From: a virus
Lineage: Duplodnaviria > Heunggongvirae > Uroviricota > Caudoviricetes
Length of the DNA stretch: 30,256 nt
Strand: one strand, 5' to 3'
IMG/VR virus record: IMGVR_UViG_2563366827_000006
Coordinates: 1 to 30,256 of that record
In this document: positions 3,626-30,256 of the stretch, piece by piece
Numbering within the stretch: the stretch's first letter is position 1
Layout: every line of letters starts with the position of its first letter
Program-made: the position numbers and the translations under genes
The notes under the pieces: model-generated
What the model was told of the DNA's origin: nothing
Seen by the model: the letters and a program-made list of their open reading frames with translations, nothing else
Database searches by the model: none

Positions 3626-7306
<3,681 letters not shown>

Positions 7307-10602: not shown

Positions 10603-11700
10603 ATGAAAAAATTAACAGTGGCAATTTCTGCTGTAGCTGCATCAGTACTGATGGCGATGTCTGCTCAGGCAGCTGAAATTTATAATAAAGACAGTAACAA
10701 GCTGGATCTGTACGGGAAAGTTAATGCCAAGCACTACTTTTCCTCTAACGATGCAGATGATGGTGATACTACTTATGTTCGTCTGGGCTTCAAAGGCGAA
10801 ACCCAAATCAACGATCAGCTGACTGGTTTCGGTCAGTGGGAATATGAATTCAAAGGCAACCGCGCTGAATCTCAAGGTTCCTCCAAAGACAAAACCCGTC
10901 TTGCATTTGCAGGCCTGAAATTCGGTGACTACGGCTCAATCGATTACGGCCGTAACTACGGTGTAGCATACGACATCGGTGCGTGGACTGACGTTCTGCC
11001 AGAATTCGGTGGCGATACCTGGACCCAAACAGATGTGTTCATGACTGGTCGTACCACTGGTGTTGCAACCTATCGTAACAACGACTTCTTTGGTCTGGTT
11101 GATGGTCTGAACTTTGCTGCTCAGTACCAAGGCAAAAACGATCGTAGCGATTTCGATAACTACACCGAAGGTAACGGTGATGGCTTCGGTTTCTCTGCTA
11201 CCTATGAATACGAAGGATTCGGTATCGGTGCAACTTATGCGAAATCTGATCGTACCGACACTCAAGTTAATGCAGGGAAAGTTCTTCCTGAAGTATTTGC
11301 TTCCGGTAAAAATGCAGAAGTTTGGGCCGCAGGTCTGAAATATGACGCTAACAACATTTACCTGGCCACTACCTATTCTGAAACCCAGAATATGACTGTA
11401 TTTGCTGATCACTTCGTTGCTAATAAAGCTCAAAACTTCGAAGCTGTTGCACAATATCAGTTCGATTTCGGTCTGCGTCCGTCCGTTGCTTACCTGCAAT
11501 CTAAAGGTAAGGATCTTGGAGTATGGGGCGATCAGGACTTAGTCAAATATGTTGATGTAGGTGCAACCTATTACTTCAACAAAAATATGTCTACTTTCGT
11601 TGATTACAAAATCAACCTGCTTGACAAAAATGACTTCACTAAAGCACTCGGTGTAAGCACTGATGACATCGTTGCTGTAGGTCTGGTTTACCAGTTCTAA
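10603..11700 (+). CDS. nmpC: Outer-membrane general porin, OmpC/OmpF family (prophage-encoded NmpC/Lc type)
   Basis: 365-aa ORF with signal peptide [23 protein letters not shown] and C-terminal …VAVGLVYQF; matches remembered NmpC/Lc; sits between Q and S on the opposite strand as in DLP12 and PA-2. Confidence 0.9.
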
Positions 11701-11889: not shown

Positions 11890-12273
11890 TTAATTAGAGT
11901 TATTAACAACGATATCCATCTCTAACCGGATATCTAATGCCATTAACATCCCTTCAATTATACCCTCAGCCTTCTGTAACCTTTTCCCGATATAACCATC
12001 AGAGCAGCAATGCTTACCTGCCAGTGACATGAATGTCATACCGACTACATAATAATCTACTAATAAATCGTGCAAATCGCTGTTGTTCTTTTTCAGACGG
12101 GCCATGCACCCGCAAATGATCATCGCGTCATCGTCACAACATTGCGGGCGAGATTTTACTTTTGAAGGAATTAATCCCTTAAAACCGGCGGCAATGGACG
12201 ACCAGGTCACATCTTCATGATTATTAGCCGCCCACGCTCCCCAACGCTCAAGAACCATCTGAATATCACGCAT
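11890..12273 (-). CDS. Q: Late-gene antiterminator Q (DLP12 QuuD type)
   Basis: ORF 11890-12288 contains [49 protein letters not shown]… matching remembered DLP12 QuuD (127 aa); start taken at ATG 12273. Confidence 0.85.
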
Positions 12274-12495
12274 CAACTTACTCCACAAAAATCAGACCAG
12301 AACGCCAATTACAAGCAAAAATCAACAAAACAGTATTAGTTGATTGTTATCTCTGACTTCATACTCCTGCTCCTGTCAGGGTTTTGGCGTAACTCTTCAG
12401 TATTCGGTAATCGGTCAAAACAGAACCGGGGAAACGATATAAGCGCAGACGCCCCCAGCGGTGGCGAAGAAGTTCTGCCATATAAAACTCAAACA

Positions 12496-12858
12496 TCATT
12501 CATTCCCCATTTCGGTGATGGTCAGTTCCAGCCTCCCACCTTTGGTAACAGGCATCTTCACAACGCGGTAATCAACGACTTGAGCATCATCCAGCCAGAA
12601 ACCTGCTTTAGTGAGTGTGTCAAAAGCGGCTTTTTGCAGATTATCCAGGTCACGGCGACGGCGATCCGGCATGTGGCACTCAATGCGGATTTTCACAGGC
12701 ATAGCCAGGCCGATATCCAGCATTGCGTTTTTAATGATTCGGGCGACGTTATCGCGGTATGCCTGCCCCTCTGCGCTGACGTGCGTGCGCCCGCGATTAT
12801 GGCGGTAATAGCGATTATTGCTCGGAGGCCAGGGTAATGTGATGCTGTAGGTATTCAC
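12496..12858 (-). CDS. rusA: Holliday-junction resolvase RusA
   Basis: 120-aa [45 protein letters not shown]… matches RusA. Confidence 0.93.
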
Positions 12859-13145
12859 GCCTTAATAACCCCCTCTTTCAGCCAGATAACCTGTGTTCTC
12901 GCCATACCTTCCAGCGCGCATTCTTTTGCATATGCAGCATCGACAAAATGTGTGCGGCGGTCGATTTCGTCGTGGCAGGCAGAACATGCAATGGTGGCAA
13001 TCAGGTCTGGCGGTTTGGTACCGGTGCCGCACAATCCAGTCAGCCGGATATGTGCCAGTACAGACGTTTCAGGGTTGCCATTACATACGCCAGGGATTCT
13101 TACCTGGCATTCCCGACCACGCGCTGCTTTTCTCAAATCAGCCAT
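12855..13145 (-). CDS. ybcO: YbcO-like protein (NinF/YbcO family, Cys-rich putative nuclease)
   Basis: ORF 12855-13184 contains [42 protein letters not shown]… (96 aa from ATG 13145), matching remembered DLP12 YbcO. Confidence 0.8.
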
Positions 13146-13308
13146 GATTCCTCCTTGCTGCCAGTCGCAACCATTTTTTATCAACCAGGCTGGCGGTATA
13201 TCCGAGCAGTGTTGGTATTTCGGAAGGCTTCAGCTCCGGTTTACGCTTACGACGATTTGGTACTCTGTAGATGTGTCCGTTCATGACACGAATAAGCGGT
13301 GTAGCCAT
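13138..13308 (-). CDS. ninE: NinE protein
   Basis: [56 protein letters not shown] (56 aa) matches lambda/DLP12 NinE; the ORF-track start at 13329 lies inside IS3, so the start is taken at ATG 13308. Confidence 0.82.
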   Translation of the reverse strand: MATPLIRVMNGHIYRVPNRRKRKPELKPSEIPTLLGYTASLVDKKWLRLAARRNHG

Positions 13309-13378
13309 TACTCTGATCTTACCCAGCAATAGTGGACACGCGGCTAAGTGAGTAAACTCTCAGTCAGAGGTGACTCAC

Positions 13379-13678
13379 ATGACAAAAACAGTATCAACCA
13401 GTAAAAAACCCCGTAAACAGCATTCGCCTGAATTTCGCAGTGAAGCCCTGAAGCTTGCTGAACGCATCGGTGTTACTGCCGCAGCCCGTGAACTCAGCCT
13501 GTATGAATCACAGCTCTACAACTGGCGCAGTAAACAGCAAAATCAGCAGACGTCTTCTGAACGTGAACTGGAGATGTCTACCGAGATTGCACGTCTCAAA
13601 CGCCAGCTGGCAGAACGGGATGAAGAGCTGGCTATCCTCCAAAAGGCCGCGACATACTTCGCGAAGCGCCTGAAATGA
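13379..13678 (+). CDS. insE: IS3 transposase OrfA (InsE)
   Basis: [54 protein letters not shown]… matches IS3 OrfA; ATG at 13379. Confidence 0.92.
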
Positions 13679-14541
13679 AGTATGTCTTTATTGAAAAACA
13701 TCAGGCTGAGTTCAGCATCAAAGCAATGTGCCGCGTGCTCCGGGTGGCCCGCAGCGGCTGGTATACGTGGTGTCAGCGGCGGACAAGGATAAGCACGCGT
13801 CAGCAGTTCCGCCAACACTGCGACAGCGTTGTCCTCGCGGCTTTTACCCGGTCAAAACAGCGTTACGGTGCCCCACGCCTGACGGATGAACTGCGTGCTC
13901 AGGGTTACCCCTTTAACGTAAAAACCGTGGCGGCAAGCCTGCGCCGTCAGGGACTGAGGGCAAAGGCCTCCCGGAAGTTCAGCCCGGTCAGCTACCGCGC
14001 ACACGGCCTGCCTGTGTCAGAAAATCTGTTGGAGCAGGATTTTTACGCCAGTGGCCCGAACCAGAAGTGGGCAGGAGACATCACGTACTTACGTACAGAT
14101 GAAGGCTGGCTGTATCTGGCAGTGGTCATTGACCTGTGGTCACGTGCCGTTATTGGCTGGTCAATGTCGCCACGCATGACGGCGCAACTGGCCTGCGATG
14201 CCCTGCAGATGGCGCTGTGGCGGCGTAAGAGGCCCCGGAACGTTATCGTTCACACGGACCGTGGAGGCCAGTACTGTTCAGCAGATTATCAGGCGCAACT
14301 GAAGCGGCATAATCTGCGTGGAAGTATGAGCGCAAAAGGTTGCTGCTACGATAATGCCTGCGTGGAAAGCTTCTTTCATTCGCTGAAAGTGGAATGTATC
14401 CATGGAGAACACTTTATCAGCCGGGAAATAATGCGGGCAACGGTGTTTAATTATATCGAATGTGATTACAATCGGTGGCGGCGGCACAGTTGGTGTGGCG
14501 GCCTCAGTCCGGAACAATTTGAAAACAAGAACCTCGCTTAG
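13675..14541 (+). CDS. insF: IS3 transposase OrfB (InsF; DDE catalytic domain, normally expressed as OrfAB by -1 frameshift)
   Basis: 288-aa [39 protein letters not shown]… matches IS3 OrfB; overlaps orfA 3' end. Confidence 0.92.
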
Positions 14542-14568
14542 GCCTGTGTCCATATTACGTGGGTAGGA

Positions 14569-15024
14569 TCACGCCTCCTGCTTGTCGCGCAGCAGCTGGA
14601 ACTCGCAGCTCTGCGGAATAGTCAGGTGGCAGCCAATATTCACCGCCCAGGCTTCAACCTTACACAGGAAGACATACATCTCTCCGGTATCAAGATCGGA
14701 GGTATGGCGTAACGACTGGATAGTAGTGATTTCGCCGGTTACGACATCAACCAGGTCCTTGGTTTCATAACCGAGGTATGTGTGTTTGAGAGCATCTTTT
14801 ACCCATGCTGAAGTAGCGAACGATTTCCCCCTGCTGATGAGGTATTCACTGATTTCGCTGTACCACATGTGGCTGAGTGCATTCTGGGAAAGACTGCGTT
14901 TCTCACGCCACGGTTTAAGCACCATGCGAAAGCATTTTCCGTTCTCCAGATAAGGCTGGATCTGCTGGCCGATAGCGGTGAAGTTACCGCGATGCAATTT
15001 GATGCCATCTTGTAGGAGGTTCAC
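14569..15024 (-). CDS. ybcN: YbcN-like protein (DLP12 YbcN family)
   Basis: 151-aa [58 protein letters not shown]… matches remembered YbcN; its TGA stop is formed by the terminal 3 nt of IS3. Confidence 0.8.
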
Positions 15025-15215
15025 GATTCACCTCCGCAGAGGTCAAACGCTGGATGCAAAAAATCGCAGGTACATTTCTGCATCTGTGAAGGGAGAAGAG
15101 AGTTTGGATTGTATGTGCGCATAAACGTCCCCGTTTAGCGCAGAAGTCACCGGAGTTGTTCAGGCTCCGGTGACTTAATTATGACAAGTTGATTATGGAA
15201 AATCAAAGCTTGTCA

Positions 15216-16598: not shown

Positions 16599-17093
16599 TC
16601 ATTTCCAATTGCAAGACTGTGAAATTTTTTCCACAACCTTATCAATCTCAGACAAGTCAAACTCAACTACTTGCATAGTTGATCCATAAGGTTCAAACCC
16701 AAAAATAGCTTTTTTATGCTTAGCCAAGGTCTTTATAAATTGTATTGGTTGTGGAGCAAATGCAGAATCACCGCCTTCCCCACCTCCCCAAACACTCTTG
16801 ACCGGCTTTCCGCCATCTAACCGCACTGTAATCCTTGGGTTGTCCGAACCCATATAATCATTGAATGATAAATAGGCATCTGTTTTGTTATCACTACAAC
16901 GCAACACCAGTGAAGTTGCACGATCAGTACCTGCTTTGTTATATGAATCTGGTGATAAATTAAGAGCCACAAAGTCAGTCTGGTCAGTCATTTTATTTAT
17001 CTCAGACTTTGTTATCCACGGCCCTAACTTCTCTACACCAGCATTTGCTGTAAACGAGGCACTTATGACAAAGGCTAAAATAAATTTTCTCAT
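16599..17093 (-). CDS. Hypothetical secreted or periplasmic protein with signal peptide (unknown function, moron cassette)
   Basis: 164-aa ORF MRKFILAFVISASFTANA|GVEKL… has a typical Sec signal peptide with ANA cleavage motif; strong RBS AAGGAG 8 nt upstream; AT-rich. Confidence 0.65.
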   Translation of the reverse strand: MRKFILAFVISASFTANAGVEKLGPWITKSEINKMTDQTDFVALNLSPDSYNKAGTDRATSLVLRCSDNKTDAYLSFNDYMGSDNPRITVRLDGGKPVKSVWGGGEGGDSAFAPQPIQFIKTLAKHKKAIFGFEPYGSTMQVVEFDLSEIDKVVEKISQSCNWK

Positions 17094-20724: not shown

Positions 20725-20846
20725 AGTGAGGCTAAAAAACAGTTACAGCAATAGGCCTGTTGTTTTTCTTTAAACACGCAGTGTTAAACCGCTCTTTGAG
20801 ATGCGGAGTAATGAGATGGAAGACTTGAATCACATAAGGGTTAGTG

Positions 20847-21596
20847 ATGGAGTGCGTAGCGAGCAGCAATAGTGCAATACCTAATGTCGTTGAGGTAATA
20901 CGTCGCATCAATGAAGGTTCCACTCAGCCATTTCTTTGCAAATGTGATGATGGGCAGTTGTATGTTTTGAAGTCAAAACCATCAATGCCCCCGAAAAATC
21001 TCTTAGCTGAGTTCATTTCGGCGTGTTTGGCTAATGATATCGGCCTTCCTTTACCTGACTTTAAAATCGTATTTGTGCCAGAGGAACTTATAGAGTACTC
21101 ACCTGATCTGCAGCAACAAATTTGTACAGGATATGCCTTTGCTTCATTGTTCATTGACGGTGCAATAGCGTTAACGTTTACGCAGTCAAGAAACGAAACG
21201 ATCATCCCAGTCGAACAGCAAAAATTAATCTATGTTTTTGATAAATGGATATTAAATGCAGACAGAACGCTTACTGACAAAGGTGGAAACGTTAACATCC
21301 TTTATGACATCAGTAACGATAAGTATTATCTGATTGACCATAATCTCTCATTTGATCAGAATGCTGGACCTGAAGATTTTTCTGTGCACGTGTACGGCCC
21401 TGGTAACCGCAAATGGCAATATGATTTAGTGGATCGCGTAGAGTACCGCCAGAGGGTCGTTAACAGTTTACACAAGCTTCCTGCTATCCTTGACGAAATT
21501 CCAGAAGAGTGGATAGTAGATGAGGAGTTTTTACCTTTTGTCTGCACTACGCTAGACAAAGGTGATTGTGATGAATTTTGGAGCGCAATAGAATGA
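20847..21596 (+). CDS. Hypothetical protein with HipA-like atypical kinase-fold motifs (gene 1 of two-gene cassette in rexAB position)
   Basis: ~249 aa from ATG 20847 (AAGGG RBS at 20836-20840; ORF track starts 20844); motif YVFDKWILNADRTLTDKGGNVNIL…YLIDHNLSF resembles HipA-type catalytic loop; kinase assignment is pattern-based, not searched. Confidence 0.55.
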   Translation: MECVASSNSAIPNVVEVIRRINEGSTQPFLCKCDDGQLYVLKSKPSMPPKNLLAEFISACLANDIGLPLPDFKIVFVPEELIEYSPDLQQQICTGYAFASLFIDGAIALTFTQSRNETIIPVEQQKLIYVFDKWILNADRTLTDKGGNVNILYDISNDKYYLIDHNLSFDQNAGPEDFSVHVYGPGNRKWQYDLVDRVEYRQRVVNSLHKLPAILDEIPEEWIVDEEFLPFVCTTLDKGDCDEFWSAIE

Positions 21597-22420
21597 CAAC
21601 TCCATGCCTATATAGCATCGTTCGCTATGCGCCTTATGCGGAGACTGAAGAGTTCGCAAACATAGGCGTACTTCTGTGCGCGCCAAAAGAAAATTACTTT
21701 GATTTCCAGCTCACAAAGCGAAATGACTCTCGTGTAAAGAATTTTTTCCATGATGATTGTATTTTCCCTGTAGCAAAAGACTCAATACAAAGAGAACTAC
21801 AGTTCGCAAAAATGCATGCGACCCAGATTGTTGGACATCAACAACTTGCACAATTCTTCAGATATTTTACAAACAAAAAAGAATCAATTTTTCAGTTCAG
21901 TTCTACGAGAGTGATTCTCAGCGAAAACCCAAAAGAAGAGCTGGCCCGCATTTACAATAAATATGTAAACCACTCTGACTACACAAAAGAGCGCCGTGAA
22001 GATGTTCTAGCCAGAGAGCTAAAACGAAGTATCGATAGAATAGATGGATTGAAGAACGTCTTCAAACAAGCAACCATTGATGGGTATTTCGCAAAGTTCT
22101 CAATGCCATTGGTCGCCAAGAAGCATGACAGGATCCAATGTGCCATCAAACCTCTGGCATTCACTCAAGCTGAACCAGGAAAAATGATGGAGCATAGTGA
22201 TACTTGGGTGATGAGAATAACTCGAGCAGCAGAAGAAAACCTGCTTTCACTTGATGACATTTTATTCACAATTGAAACTCCTGAATCACCAAACTCAGGC
22301 CAAAGCAAAGTTATTGACATCATAAAGAGAACTATGGATGCTAAGAAAATAAATCATATACCTGCATCCAACCACAAAGAAACTATTGATTTTGCAAAAA
22401 AAATACTTCCCCAAGTTTAA
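21593..22420 (+). CDS. DUF3037-like protein (gene 2 of two-gene cassette, translationally coupled)
   Basis: ATG at 21593 overlaps gene-1 stop (ATGA); N-terminus MTTPCLYSIVRYAPYAETEEFANIGVLL matches my recollection of the DUF3037 N-terminal signature; ~275 aa. Confidence 0.55.
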   Translation: MTTPCLYSIVRYAPYAETEEFANIGVLLCAPKENYFDFQLTKRNDSRVKNFFHDDCIFPVAKDSIQRELQFAKMHATQIVGHQQLAQFFRYFTNKKESIFQFSSTRVILSENPKEELARIYNKYVNHSDYTKERREDVLARELKRSIDRIDGLKNVFKQATIDGYFAKFSMPLVAKKHDRIQCAIKPLAFTQAEPGKMMEHSDTWVMRITRAAEENLLSLDDILFTIETPESPNSGQSKVIDIIKRTMDAKKINHIPASNHKETIDFAKKILPQV

Positions 22421-26952: not shown

Positions 26953-27753
26953 ATGACTATCCACTTTCACGGCAGCCCAATATGGGGGGATGAGCATGCC
27001 CCTACAGATATGCTGATTAAAGCCCTTTACCGTGATGGTGGGGCTTTTGTTTCATTTGCCAGACCAGAGCAGATGAAAAAGATTGCCATGTTCCCTTGTG
27101 ATATACGCCTTGATAACGGTGCTTTTAGCGACTGGATGAAAGCATTAAAGAAAGGCACTCCGGTAGACTGGAGTAAGAGACGAGCAAAATTCTACGACTT
27201 TGTTGGGAAGTGGTTCAGCAGAATTGAATGGTTTCTTATACCTGACGTTATCGAAGGGACAGAGGCAGAAAACGACGAGCAGATTGAGTTGGTTCCTGAT
27301 TGGCTAAAATCAAAAGCGGTTCCGGTCTGGCATACCGACGAATCAATTGAACGTCTTTTACGCCTTTCTGGCAAATTTGAATGGGTGGCGATTGGATGCT
27401 GCGGCCCACACAGGAACATACGCTCTAAATGGTGGGAACAGAGAATGGATGAAGTTTTCACTGAGCTTTATATCAATCGTAATTTGAAAGTGAAAATTCA
27501 TGGTCTTCGAATGCTCGACGTGAGAGTTCTTGGTATGTATCCGTTCGCCAGTGCGGATTCTACTAATGTTGCTGTTAACGTACCGAAGACAGAGAAGCGA
27601 TTTCCTGAGATTACCGACAAACTGGCACGTACAGCTGTACTTCGCGCTGCTATTGAAAAGGTGCACCCGCCATCGATATCAGCATGGGTAGACAGAAAGA
27701 TGAGAGAGCCGGCGCAAGCCGGTTTTTTATTTGAATTCACCGACGCCGCTTAA
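26953..27753 (+). CDS. Hypothetical protein (266 aa); weak, unverified resemblance to TGT/DpdA-type transglycosylase motifs
   Basis: ORF with GGGGA RBS; motifs …IRLDNGAFSDW… and …HGLRMLDV… loosely recall TGT catalytic Asp motifs (…DSGGFQ…, …GMFD…); own AT-rich upstream region. Confidence 0.5.
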   Translation: MTIHFHGSPIWGDEHAPTDMLIKALYRDGGAFVSFARPEQMKKIAMFPCDIRLDNGAFSDWMKALKKGTPVDWSKRRAKFYDFVGKWFSRIEWFLIPDVIEGTEAENDEQIELVPDWLKSKAVPVWHTDESIERLLRLSGKFEWVAIGCCGPHRNIRSKWWEQRMDEVFTELYINRNLKVKIHGLRMLDVRVLGMYPFASADSTNVAVNVPKTEKRFPEITDKLARTAVLRAAIEKVHPPSISAWVDRKMREPAQAGFLFEFTDAA

Positions 27754-28278: not shown

Positions 28279-28479
28279 ATGCAACACGAACTACAACCTG
28301 ATTCACTGGTTGATTTGAAATTCATCATGGCTGATACTGGCTTCGGTAAGACCTTCATCTATGACCGGATTAAGTCCGGCGACCTGCCTAAAGCCAAAGT
28401 TATCCACGGACGAGCAAGATGGTTATATCGTGACCATTGTGAATTCAAAAATAAGCTCTTAAGCCGCGCCAATGGGTAA
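28279..28479 (+). CDS. torI: TorI-like excisionase / recombination directionality factor (AlpA/Xis family winged-helix)
   Basis: ORF 28264-28479 begins with TTG; ATG at 28279 (GGAGA RBS) gives 66 aa MQHELQPDSLVDLKFIMADTGFGKTFIYDRIKSGDLPKAKVIHGRARWLYRDHCEFKNKLLSRANG, matching remembered KplE1 TorI; adjacent to an argW core repeat. Confidence 0.75.
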   Translation: MQHELQPDSLVDLKFIMADTGFGKTFIYDRIKSGDLPKAKVIHGRARWLYRDHCEFKNKLLSRANG

Positions 28480-28551
28480 AATAGCGGGTAAAATATTTTT
28501 CACATCTAAAAAATACCATTCCAATCAATCCCCTGCCGCGCCAAGTAGATG

Positions 28552-28567
28552 CCTGCAGGGGACACCA
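28552..28567 (+). other. attR: Prophage attachment-site core: 16-nt copy of the 3' end of tRNA-Arg argW (CCTGCAGGGGACACCA), prophage/host junction
   Basis: Exact match to the remembered last 16 nt of argW including discriminator and CCA; no upstream tRNA body, so it is a core repeat rather than a tRNA gene. Confidence 0.65.
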
Positions 28568-29008
28568 GATACCCTTCAAACGAAATCTACCTTCACCCCG
28601 TAAAAGATGGGTTTGGCAGCACACTTGCCTTATATCTACTCATTTTTACTGCAACAGGTTGAAATCTCAGCACTGTCAGAAAGCGCTGATGACTAAACAG
28701 CCCTGGGCCGGGCGATGTAACCATCACACAGAATCCTGATAGCGAAATATGGCGTGACTCGATACTTCACTCCGCAATGCATTCCTTGATGAATTCGCAG
28801 GACCGTGATACACGGGACAGGTCACTGAATGACGACAATGTCCTGGAAATCAGCGAACCGCGCATCTGAAGTACATTTGAGCGACTGTACCAGAACATGA
28901 ATGAGGCGTTTGGATTAGGCGATTATTAGCAGGGCTAAGCATTTTACTATTATTATTTTCCGGTTGAGGGATATAGAGCTATCGACAACAACCGGAAAAA
29001 GTTTACGT

Positions 29009-30256
29009 CTATATTGCTGAAGGTACAGGCGTTTCCATAACTATTTGCTCGCGTTTTTTACTCAAGAAGAAAATGCCAAATAGCAACATCAGGCAGACAA
29101 TACCCGAAATTGCGAAGAAAACTGTCTGGTAGCCTGCGTGGTCAAAGAGTATCCCAGTCGGCGTTGAAAGCAGCACAATCCCAAGCGAACTGGCAATTTG
29201 AAAACCAATCAGAAAGATCGTCGACGACAGGCGCTTATCAAAGTTTGCCACGCTGTATTTGAAGACGGATATGACACAAAGTGGAACCTCAATGGCATGT
29301 AACAACTTCACTAATGAAATAATCCAGGGGTTAACGAACAGCGCGCAGGAAAGGATACGCAACGCCATAATCACAACTCCGATAAGTAATGCATTTTTTG
29401 GCCCTACCCGATTCACAAAGAAAGGAATAATCGCCATGCACAGCGCTTCGAGTACCACCTGGAATGAGTTGAGATAACCATACAGGCGCGTTCCTACATC
29501 GTGTGATTCGAATAAACCTGCATAAAAGACAGGAAAAAGTTGTTGATCAAAAATGTTATAGAAAGACCACGTCCCCACAATAAATATGACGAAAACCCAG
29601 AAGTTTCGATCCTTGAAAACTGCGATAAAATCCTCTTTTTTTACCCCTCCCGCATCTGCCGCTACGCACTGGTGATCCTTATCTTTAAAACGCATGTTGA
29701 TCATCATAAATACAGCGCCAAATAGCGAGACCAACCAGAAGTTGATATGGGGACTGATACTAAAAAATATGCCGGCAAAGAACGCGCCAATAGCATAGCC
29801 AAAAGATCCCCAGGCGCGCGCTGTTCCATATTCGAAATGAAAATTTCGCGCCATTTTTTCGGTGAAGCTATCAAGCAAACCGCATCCCGCCAGATACCCC
29901 AAGCCAAAAAATAGCGCCCCCAGAATTAGACCTACAGAAAAATTGCTTTGCAGTAACGGTTCATAAACGTAAATCATAAACGGTCCGGTCAAGACCAGGA
30001 TGAAACTCATACACCAGATGAGCGGTTTCTTCAGACCGAGTTTATCCTGAACGATGCCGTAGAACATCATAAATAGAATGCTGGTAAACTGGTTGACCGA
30101 ATAAAGTGTACCTAATTCCGTCCCTGTCAACCCTAGATGTCCTTTCAGCCAAATAGCGTATAACGACCACCACAGCGACCAGGAAATAAAAAAGAGAAAT
30201 GAGTAACTGGATGCAAAACGATAGTACGCATTTCTGAATGGAATATTCAGTGCCAT
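29009..30256 (-). CDS. cscB: LacY-family oligosaccharide:H+ symporter, most likely sucrose permease CscB (host chromosomal gene)
   Basis: 415-aa ORF MALNIPFRNAYYRFASSYSFLFFISWSLWWSLYAIWLKGHLGL… with LacY-family motifs (DKLGLKK, FDQQ, GPKNALL, HAIEVP, FKY); start codon is the last 3 nt of the window. Confidence 0.8.
   Translation of the reverse strand: MALNIPFRNAYYRFASSYSFLFFISWSLWWSLYAIWLKGHLGLTGTELGTLYSVNQFTSILFMMFYGIVQDKLGLKKPLIWCMSFILVLTGPFMIYVYEPLLQSNFSVGLILGALFFGLGYLAGCGLLDSFTEKMARNFHFEYGTARAWGSFGYAIGAFFAGIFFSISPHINFWLVSLFGAVFMMINMRFKDKDHQCVAADAGGVKKEDFIAVFKDRNFWVFVIFIVGTWSFYNIFDQQLFPVFYAGLFESHDVGTRLYGYLNSFQVVLEALCMAIIPFFVNRVGPKNALLIGVVIMALRILSCALFVNPWIISLVKLLHAIEVPLCVISVFKYSVANFDKRLSSTIFLIGFQIASSLGIVLLSTPTGILFDHAGYQTVFFAISGIVCLMLLFGIFFLSKKREQIVMETPVPSAI

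Follow-up and report, generated by a model that had tools for sequence, protein, structure and literature searches.

A recent IS3 insertion in the ybcN-ninE overlap of a lambda-like prophage probably blocks, rather than activates, the operon that contains rusA and Q

Introduction

IS elements that enter the early operons of lambda are classically polar, as in the case of IS2 near cII and O. Early transcription that has been modified by N in lambda and other lambdoid phages is resistant to termination, and it suppresses the polarity of IS elements in early operons. A second outcome of IS insertion is known from the DLP12 prophage of K-12, where rusA is activated by IS2 (rus-1) or IS10 (rus-2) insertions upstream of the gene (PMC1636454). 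IS3 is likewise able to act as a mobile promoter, according to what PMC8860574 and PMC12095673 relate of the work of Charlier (1982).

Here we describe an IS3 that interrupts the early operon of a prophage upstream of rusA and Q. The window that was analyzed is a stretch of 30,256 nucleotides from a virus record (IMG/VR record IMGVR_UViG_2563366827_000006). As in rus-1 and rus-2, an IS element lies upstream of rusA, and as in the lambda cases, a rightward early operon is cut.

Results

A complete IS3 lies antisense in a DLP12-type nin-Q module

In the window, the replication genes O and P, a CII-like gene, cro, and a cI-like repressor gene lie upstream of ybcN. Downstream of Q, ORFs and family matches indicate a porin moron, lysis genes, and head genes. 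The operon between these two groups contains the following genes.

14569..15024, minus strand: ybcN, NinB-like DNA base-flipping protein of 151 aa (...QEA); protein identical to that of the IS-free allele
13138..13308, minus strand: ninE, 56 aa; coding sequence intact and protein identical to IS-free NinE; ATG at 13308-13306
12855..13145, minus strand: ybcO, DUF1364 protein or putative nuclease of 96 aa (PF07102, E = 7e-43; synteny)
12496..12858, minus strand: rusA, Holliday junction resolvase of 120 aa (PF05866; synteny)
12359..12499, minus strand: ylcG, 46 aa (synteny with annotated relatives)
11890..12273, minus strand: Q late-gene antiterminator (quuD-like), 127 aa (phrog_79, E = 6e-54)

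The order ybcN-ninE-ybcO-rusA-ylcG-Q, followed by the porin moron and the lysis cassette, is that of a DLP12-type nin-Q module, and annotated relatives show the same arrangement. At its right end, the window carries sequence that matches the torI-cscB junction at argW/csc, which implies that the host is a lambda-like prophage at argW of E. coli with a DLP12-type nin-Q module. The host prophage is not DLP12 itself. Apart from the insertion, the prophage looks intact and complete within the window, as judged from its sequence.

The features of the inserted element are as follows.

13314..14571, plus strand: complete IS3, 1258 bp, with full-length 100% identity to many E. coli IS3 copies
13314..13352, plus strand: IRL, the left inverted repeat of IS3, at the end facing ninE; 28 of its 39 positions agree with the right end read as reverse complement
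14533..14571, plus strand: IRR, the right inverted repeat of IS3, abutting ybcN; its last 3 nt, TCA on the plus strand and TGA on the minus strand, are the ybcN stop codon
13379..13678, plus strand: IS3 orfA, 99 aa (HTH_Tnp_1, PF01527, E = 5e-10)
13675..14541, plus strand: IS3 orfB, 288 aa (rve/DDE integrase core, PF00665, E = 5e-28)
13641..13645, plus strand: A-AAA-G programmed -1 frameshift motif in the orfA/orfB overlap, located by motif position

The initial annotation had described an intact IS3 of 1258 bp with both transposase frames, and the 100% identity, the two open ORFs, and the Pfam matches bear this out. It had also placed the element at 13309-14577. An IS3 is indeed present there, but its exact limits are 13314-14571, and the larger span takes in 5-6 nt of flank at either end. 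IS3 runs antisense to the operon, with the transposase on the plus strand and the operon on the minus strand, and it splits the operon upstream of rusA and Q, as had been proposed.

The IS3 termini are imperfect inverted repeats of the form TGATC...GATCA, starting with TG and ending with CA; the end sequences in the window are TGATCTTACC... on the left and ...GGTAGGATCA on the right. These repeats were aligned by hand, as they are too imperfect for the seed of an automated repeat search. No interruption was found in orfA or orfB, whose frames overlap around AAAAG at 13641, and A4G is the frameshift site of IS3 (PMC8860574). Moreover, copies identical to the window IS3 are annotated by PGAP as an intact transposase with a programmed frameshift. 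The window IS3 is canonical and probably still able to transpose. IS3-like sequence is present in 4686 of 5426 complete E. coli genomes, at a median of three places per genome.

IS3 supplies the ybcN stop codon and separates ninE from its presumed Shine-Dalgarno sequence

The native junction was read from IS-free relatives, in which it runs ...CAGGAGGCG-TAATG-GCT; the alignment to the IS-free strain 48 gives ...CAG GAG GCG TAA TGG CT.... Natively, ybcN ends in a TAA that shares bases with the ninE start (TAATG), and a short distance upstream, within ybcN, is an AGGAGG. At the insertion point, GGCGTAATG was found in 28/28 IS-free relatives, which comprise the 20 loci first collected (K-12 derivatives among them) and 8 contigs encoding an identical YbcN. 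The native 14 bases are identical throughout the 20 first loci and the 8 later IS-free contigs. An IS-free allele that already carried GAG or an extra codon at the end of ybcN was thereby ruled out.

In the window, the ybcN stop codon is a TGA at 14571-14569 on the minus strand, formed by the three terminal bases of IS3 (TCA on the plus strand). The initial annotation was thus right that IS3 supplies this codon through its terminal TGA. The YbcN C-terminus is kept because the terminal TGA of IS3 replaces the native TAA, and the check on IS-free relatives that had been suggested showed that YbcN in the window is the same as the IS-free protein (151 aa, ...QEA). On the other side, the predicted distance of 5 bp between IS3 and the ninE start was confirmed; the 5 nt between the left end of IS3 and the ninE ATG read GAGTA on the minus strand. 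Every coding sequence around the insertion is left intact. What has moved is the putative ribosome-binding site of ninE.

14574..14579, minus strand: AGGAGG, the presumed native ninE Shine-Dalgarno sequence, from the native junction CAGGAGGCGTAATGGCT; now 1261 bp further from the ninE ATG

The GAG triplet that now precedes ninE was considered as a new Shine-Dalgarno sequence for the gene and judged unlikely to serve as one, having only 3 complementary nt and lying 2 nt from the ATG.

The insertion is recent and simple

The triplets that flank the element differ from each other by one base.

14572..14574: target-site duplication, unaltered copy; CGC on the plus strand, GCG on the minus strand, which is the last ybcN sense codon (Ala151)
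13311..13313: target-site duplication, altered copy; CTC on the plus strand, GAG on the minus strand, with one G>T change relative to CGC

The initial annotation had reported these triplets correctly, and had taken their mismatch to suggest an old insertion or an IS-mediated rearrangement. We rebuilt the native junction and the duplication from the IS-free relatives, as it had recommended. Compared with all 28 of them, the window contains exactly 3 extra bp besides IS3, which agrees with the 3-bp duplication that IS3 typically makes, although the two copies (CGC and CTC) differ at one base. Likewise, when the joined flanks were used as a query, about 2900 genomes matched as a single piece, and each match was 3 bp shorter than the query. 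Once IS3 and CTC are removed, IS-free contigs can be aligned to the window with no gap, the nearest relative differing at 2 of 4839 bp, and the 907 bp directly around the site are identical to strain 48. The window junctions were absent from 5426 complete E. coli genomes, phage records, GTDB representative genomes, and JGI metagenomes, where the GTDB representatives and the JGI metagenomes were searched with both junction sequences. IS3 was also absent from the site in 28/28 contigs that were read with the same YbcN allele.

Great age of the insertion, or a rearrangement through recombination of two IS3 copies, would account for the unlike flanking triplets, and real deletions next to IS3 do occur here in other strains (L009 and L010). 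However, both flanks are adjacent in 28/28 of the IS-free relatives examined and the window differs from them by exactly +3 bp, the element has the full consensus sequence, the rebuilt locus is nearly identical to its nearest relative, and the insertion occurs in no other genome searched. This earlier interpretation is therefore hardly credible. The contiguous flanks, the near-identity to relatives, the 100% consensus IS3, and the absence of the junction elsewhere instead imply an insertion that is recent, and neither old nor rearranged. By these sequence comparisons, it is a recent, private, simple IS3 insertion with a 3-bp duplication whose copies differ at one base, and for which the target was CGC on the plus strand. 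An imperfect target duplication alone is no sign of age or rearrangement.

The altered CTC copy has several candidate origins

Perfect 3-bp duplications flank 19 of 21 other mapped IS3 insertions in and around the module, and the remaining two (L009 and L010) are deletion derivatives of insertions that are intact in other strains. Age does not explain the single mismatch in the window, because background divergence is about 0.04% and a chance change within three bases is unlikely. Since the insertion was found in the window only, there is no ancestor with a perfect duplication for comparison. Candidate origins of CTC are an assembly or polishing error, an error in the repair that filled the 3-nt gaps, capture of a donor overhang, and a later mutation.

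We tentatively consider that CTC may be an assembly or polishing error at the repeat boundary, such that the true duplication is a perfect CGC/CGC. This origin would agree with the pattern among the other 21 insertions and with the low prior chance of a substitution in 3 bp at the divergence from the nearest relative, and reads from other IS3 copies could corrupt bases beside the end of an IS. The remainder of the junction is clean, though, which argues against such an error. The linear IS3 intermediate carries a 3-nt 5' overhang derived from the donor flank. A minor and improbable reading is that CTC might be a donor-flank footprint carried on this overhang; a literature search on the 3-nt overhangs of linear IS3 molecules returned nothing usable.

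Reported IS3 promoters read away from rusA and Q

The initial annotation had raised the possibility that outward transcription from IS3 drives ninE-ybcO-rusA-Q. According to published work, the outward promoters of IS3 run in the transposase direction and leave by the right end (PMC8860574, PMC12095673). The right-end box pairs are TTTAAT/TACAAT and TTGGTG/CAATTT (PMC12095673), and all four boxes are found in the window.

14446..14520, plus strand: published IS3 right-end promoter boxes, TTTAAT at 14446, TACAAT at 14467, TTGGTG at 14490, and CAATTT at 14515, directed toward IRR and ybcN

Transcription from these boxes would leave through IRR and enter ybcN in antisense, with ninE-rusA-Q behind it. 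The strengths of the IS3 promoters are unsettled: one paper gives the direction of P3R and calls it strong (PMC8860574), whereas another could detect no promoter activity from wild-type 150-bp fragments of the IS3 ends, which were chosen for a reporter study for this reason (PMC12095673). In the latter work, the wild-type 150-bp left end, which in the window faces ninE, had no detectable activity on either strand (PMC12095673). A consensus scan of the minus strand inside IS3 detected no sigma-70-like or promoter-like site. A hybrid promoter at IRL was also considered and rejected; none appeared in the consensus scan, and the interval up to the ninE ATG is too short to hold one.

IS3 could in principle be a mobile promoter that switches on ninE-ybcO-rusA-Q, like IS2 (rus-1) and IS10 (rus-2) in K-12. 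Activation of rusA by IS elements upstream of it is on record (PMC1636454), IS3 can act as a mobile promoter in the Charlier (1982) case as the two later papers present it, and about 450 bp that contain ninE and ybcO separate the window IS3 from the rusA start downstream. But the reported promoters exit via IRR into ybcN, the left end was inactive in the reporter study, the minus strand lacks a sigma-70-like site within IS3, and the 5 nt from IRL to the ninE ATG are too few for a hybrid -10 element and a leader. Activation of rusA and Q by this IS3 is thus very improbable. The activation of rusA by upstream IS elements in K-12, to which the initial annotation had pointed, stands as reported; the natural parallel that it had seen in this prophage is not supported, as the reported promoters point away. 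The direction of the IS3 promoters implies instead that the element is probably a block, and not a mobile promoter, for rusA and Q.

The insertion is predicted to weaken expression of ninE-ybcO-rusA-ylcG-Q

Taken as a whole, the locus is probably best explained as a recent simple IS3 insertion that acts as a block and not as a promoter. A transposition-competent IS3 would recently have entered the TAATG overlap of ybcN and ninE by simple transposition, with duplication of 3 bp (CGC). The geometry of the junction parts ninE from the AGGAGG and from the ybcN stop codon that once overlapped its start, both displaced by 1261 bp, and would thereby cost ninE its ribosome-binding site and its translational coupling to ybcN. 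The same geometry places 1258 bp of antisense IS3 sequence between the early promoter and ninE-ybcO-rusA-ylcG-Q, which would be transcribed as untranslated RNA. Translation of ninE would be reduced, and rusA and Q would be subject to Rho-dependent polarity. Late-gene activation upon induction may in that case be weaker, provided that the transcription complex of the phage does not resist termination. We infer that polarity, which the initial annotation had also proposed and which is still plausible, and the loss of ninE translational coupling are likelier consequences than activation of rusA.

No intrinsic terminator was detected on the minus strand inside IS3 in a consensus scan, which implies that any polarity would be Rho-dependent. 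The first ~500 nt of the antisense IS3 RNA contain more C than G and are untranslated.

The insertion may also be functionally silent, such that termination-resistant early transcription crosses IS3, Q expression and lysis proceed, and only ninE translation is affected. The suppression of IS polarity by N in lambda early operons is a precedent for such an outcome, and the lack of an intrinsic terminator on the minus strand inside IS3, the intact coding sequences, and the complete appearance of the remaining prophage in the window are consistent with it. If an N-like system operates here as in lambda, polarity might be suppressed upon induction and Q still expressed. However, neither an N-type antiterminator nor a boxA was recognized beside the immunity region by a boxA pattern and family scans of the repressor-adjacent ORFs (a weak negative), and transcription running the other way from the IS3 promoters would work against read-through. 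We regard a silent insertion as unlikely, and favor a block of the operon by IS3.

IS3 insertions between the ybcN and Q starts share one orientation

Complete E. coli genomes were searched twice, with the window arrangement and then with the same flanks around an inverted IS3. IS3 was found within ~1.5 kb of the region in 25 genomes with the window arrangement and in 28 genomes with the inverted IS3, and 21 of the loci found were fetched and mapped onto strain 48 coordinates. Between the start of Q and the start of ybcN (~1.5 kb), there are nine different, independent insertion points, including that of the window, and in all nine IS3 is antisense to the operon (9/9 antisense, 0 sense; binomial p = 0.004). 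The sense orientation occurs only outside this interval: two sites lie within Q, two in the lipocalin gene past it, and upstream of ybcN there are four verified sites and four more for which annotation was the basis. Antisense insertions also occur elsewhere: one site lies in Q, one verified site beyond it, and several sites, again taken from annotation, upstream of ybcN. The numbers are small, and the difference between the interval and the flanking regions gives a Fisher p of 0.0007 for verified sites only and of 0.003 for all sites.

A sense IS3 in this interval would aim P3L and P3R into ybcO-rusA-Q. It is conceivable, but doubtful, that a recurrent orientation-restricted process is at work, in which sense insertions drive ybcO, rusA, and Q, cause toxicity or lysis, and are selected out, while antisense insertions act as one-way insulators that silence the late switch. 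The viability of the K-12 rus-1 and rus-2 strains, in which the IS reads toward Q, argues against such selection, and a mechanistic target bias is another possible cause of the 9/9 orientation. The census agrees with the idea that the orientation of the window IS3 is the harmless, blocking one.

Discussion

The window contains a complete-looking prophage with a possibly weakened route to the late-gene switch, and rusA is probably not switched on. These expectations are relevant to predictions of inducibility or of RusA-dependent phenotypes for the genome that carries the window. Only one observation extends further, namely the bias in orientation that IS3 insertions upstream of Q show across E. 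coli; should it reflect selection, it would be a simple natural read-out of the IS orientations that leak transcription into toxic prophage genes.

The inserted element is that of E. coli IS3 (IS3 family, IS3 group), with the same 1258 bp, terminal repeats, orfA/orfB arrangement with A4G, and rve-type DDE transposase, and with 3 extra bp at the target in keeping with a 3-bp duplication. Relative to E. coli IS3, the element is identical, and only its insertion site is new, together with the one-base difference between the duplication copies.

The rus-1 (IS2) and rus-2 (IS10) insertions in DLP12 of K-12 resemble the window in having an IS upstream of rusA in a ybcN-ninE-ybcO-rusA-ylcG-Q module, and thus in the same transcription unit as rusA. 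The likeness stops at location: the defining feature of those insertions is a promoter directed toward rusA, and none is recognized in the window IS3. Unlike in rus-1 and rus-2, the IS3 promoters in the window face away from rusA, ninE and ybcO lie between the element and the gene, and the geometry predicts a block.

The polar IS elements of the lambda early operons, with IS2 near cII and O as the classical case, are similar to the window in that a rightward early operon is cut upstream of Q. Rho-dependent polarity that depends on antitermination is expected of them, and the same expectation applies to the window IS3. Unlike those insertions, the window site lies in the nin region at a gene overlap and disrupts no coding sequence.

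Other IS3 insertions in the nin-Q region, in EC931, EC-07, GPEC1446, EC50/FT130, LR-31/F11, ET734, S1bESBLb, and 2018-01-1CC, have the same antisense orientation and fall in the same 1.5-kb interval. They occupy different points, and in all of them the duplication is perfect. In several, ybcN, ylcG, or the 3' end of rusA is disrupted, in contrast to the window IS3, which interrupts no coding sequence. By comparison with these systems, the window carries an ordinary IS insertion of the polar type, set unusually neatly in a gene overlap of the prophage early operon, so that no protein is altered.

Orientation of IS3 in the Q-ybcN interval

Relatives (E. coli loci L002-L022 and L024) were placed on positions 5410-6900 of the reference locus L001 (strain 48), equivalent to 12273-15024 of the window. 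In the stretch from the start of Q to that of ybcN, different E. coli strains carry IS3 at nine independent sites, and at all nine the transposase direction is antisense to the operon. Among the mapped E. coli relatives, sense-oriented IS3 occurs only within Q, past Q, or upstream of ybcN, and orientation in the Q start-ybcN start interval differs from that elsewhere (Fisher p ≈ 0.001-0.003). Selection against IS3 transcription into ybcO, rusA, and Q may be the cause of this antisense-only pattern.

Region 15065-15206 of the window (minus strand), just upstream of a small ORF and ybcN, houses both a promoter-like site and a terminator-like hairpin:

15206-15178, minus strand, promoter-like site TTGATT-17-CATAAT with extended TG
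15082-15065, minus strand, terminator-like hairpin and T-run

The hairpin could explain the tolerance of sense-oriented IS3 further upstream.

Deletions adjoin IS3 in two relatives, L009 (strain KFu019) and L010 (strain PEC41), whose parent ybcN insertions are intact in other strains. In L009, 147 bp of ybcN are missing beside the left inverted repeat (IRL). An integrase fragment and tRNA-Arg now adjoin the right inverted repeat (IRR) side in L010, which has thus lost the entire early region upstream of ybcN.

Other genes and the prophage end

Other genes of note in the window are:

10603-11700, plus strand, intact OmpC/NmpC-type porin gene (365 aa) between Q and the lysis genes
16599-17093, minus strand, nin-region ORF annotated in relatives as a TagO/VasI-like type VI secretion-associated protein
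within 20844-22420, plus strand, HipA_2-like kinase gene (250 aa; PF20613, E = 1e-76)
within 20844-22420, plus strand, DUF3037 gene (280 aa)
26953-27753, plus strand, ORF (266 aa) partly matching a PHROG profile (DpdA-like queuine tRNA-ribosyltransferase)
29009-30256, minus strand, cscB

Some relatives, strain 48 among them, have an interrupted or frameshifted copy of the porin gene that is whole in the window. The TagO/VasI-like ORF, for which relatives give a weak VasI Pfam match, is an unusual passenger in the early operon of a lambdoid phage. The DpdA-like match is confined to positions 10-317 of the 509-position profile, and this ORF may be a truncated DNA-modification gene.

The sucrose (csc) locus adjoins the prophage end (~28280-30256), with cscB lying after a torI-like excisionase region. 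This junction matches an argW/KplE1-type integration site, at which the integrase lies at the opposite prophage end, here beyond the window limits. The HipA_2-like kinase and DUF3037 genes, directly 3' of the cI-like repressor, together make up a candidate moron with a toxin or defence role; in lambda, their position is occupied by rexAB.
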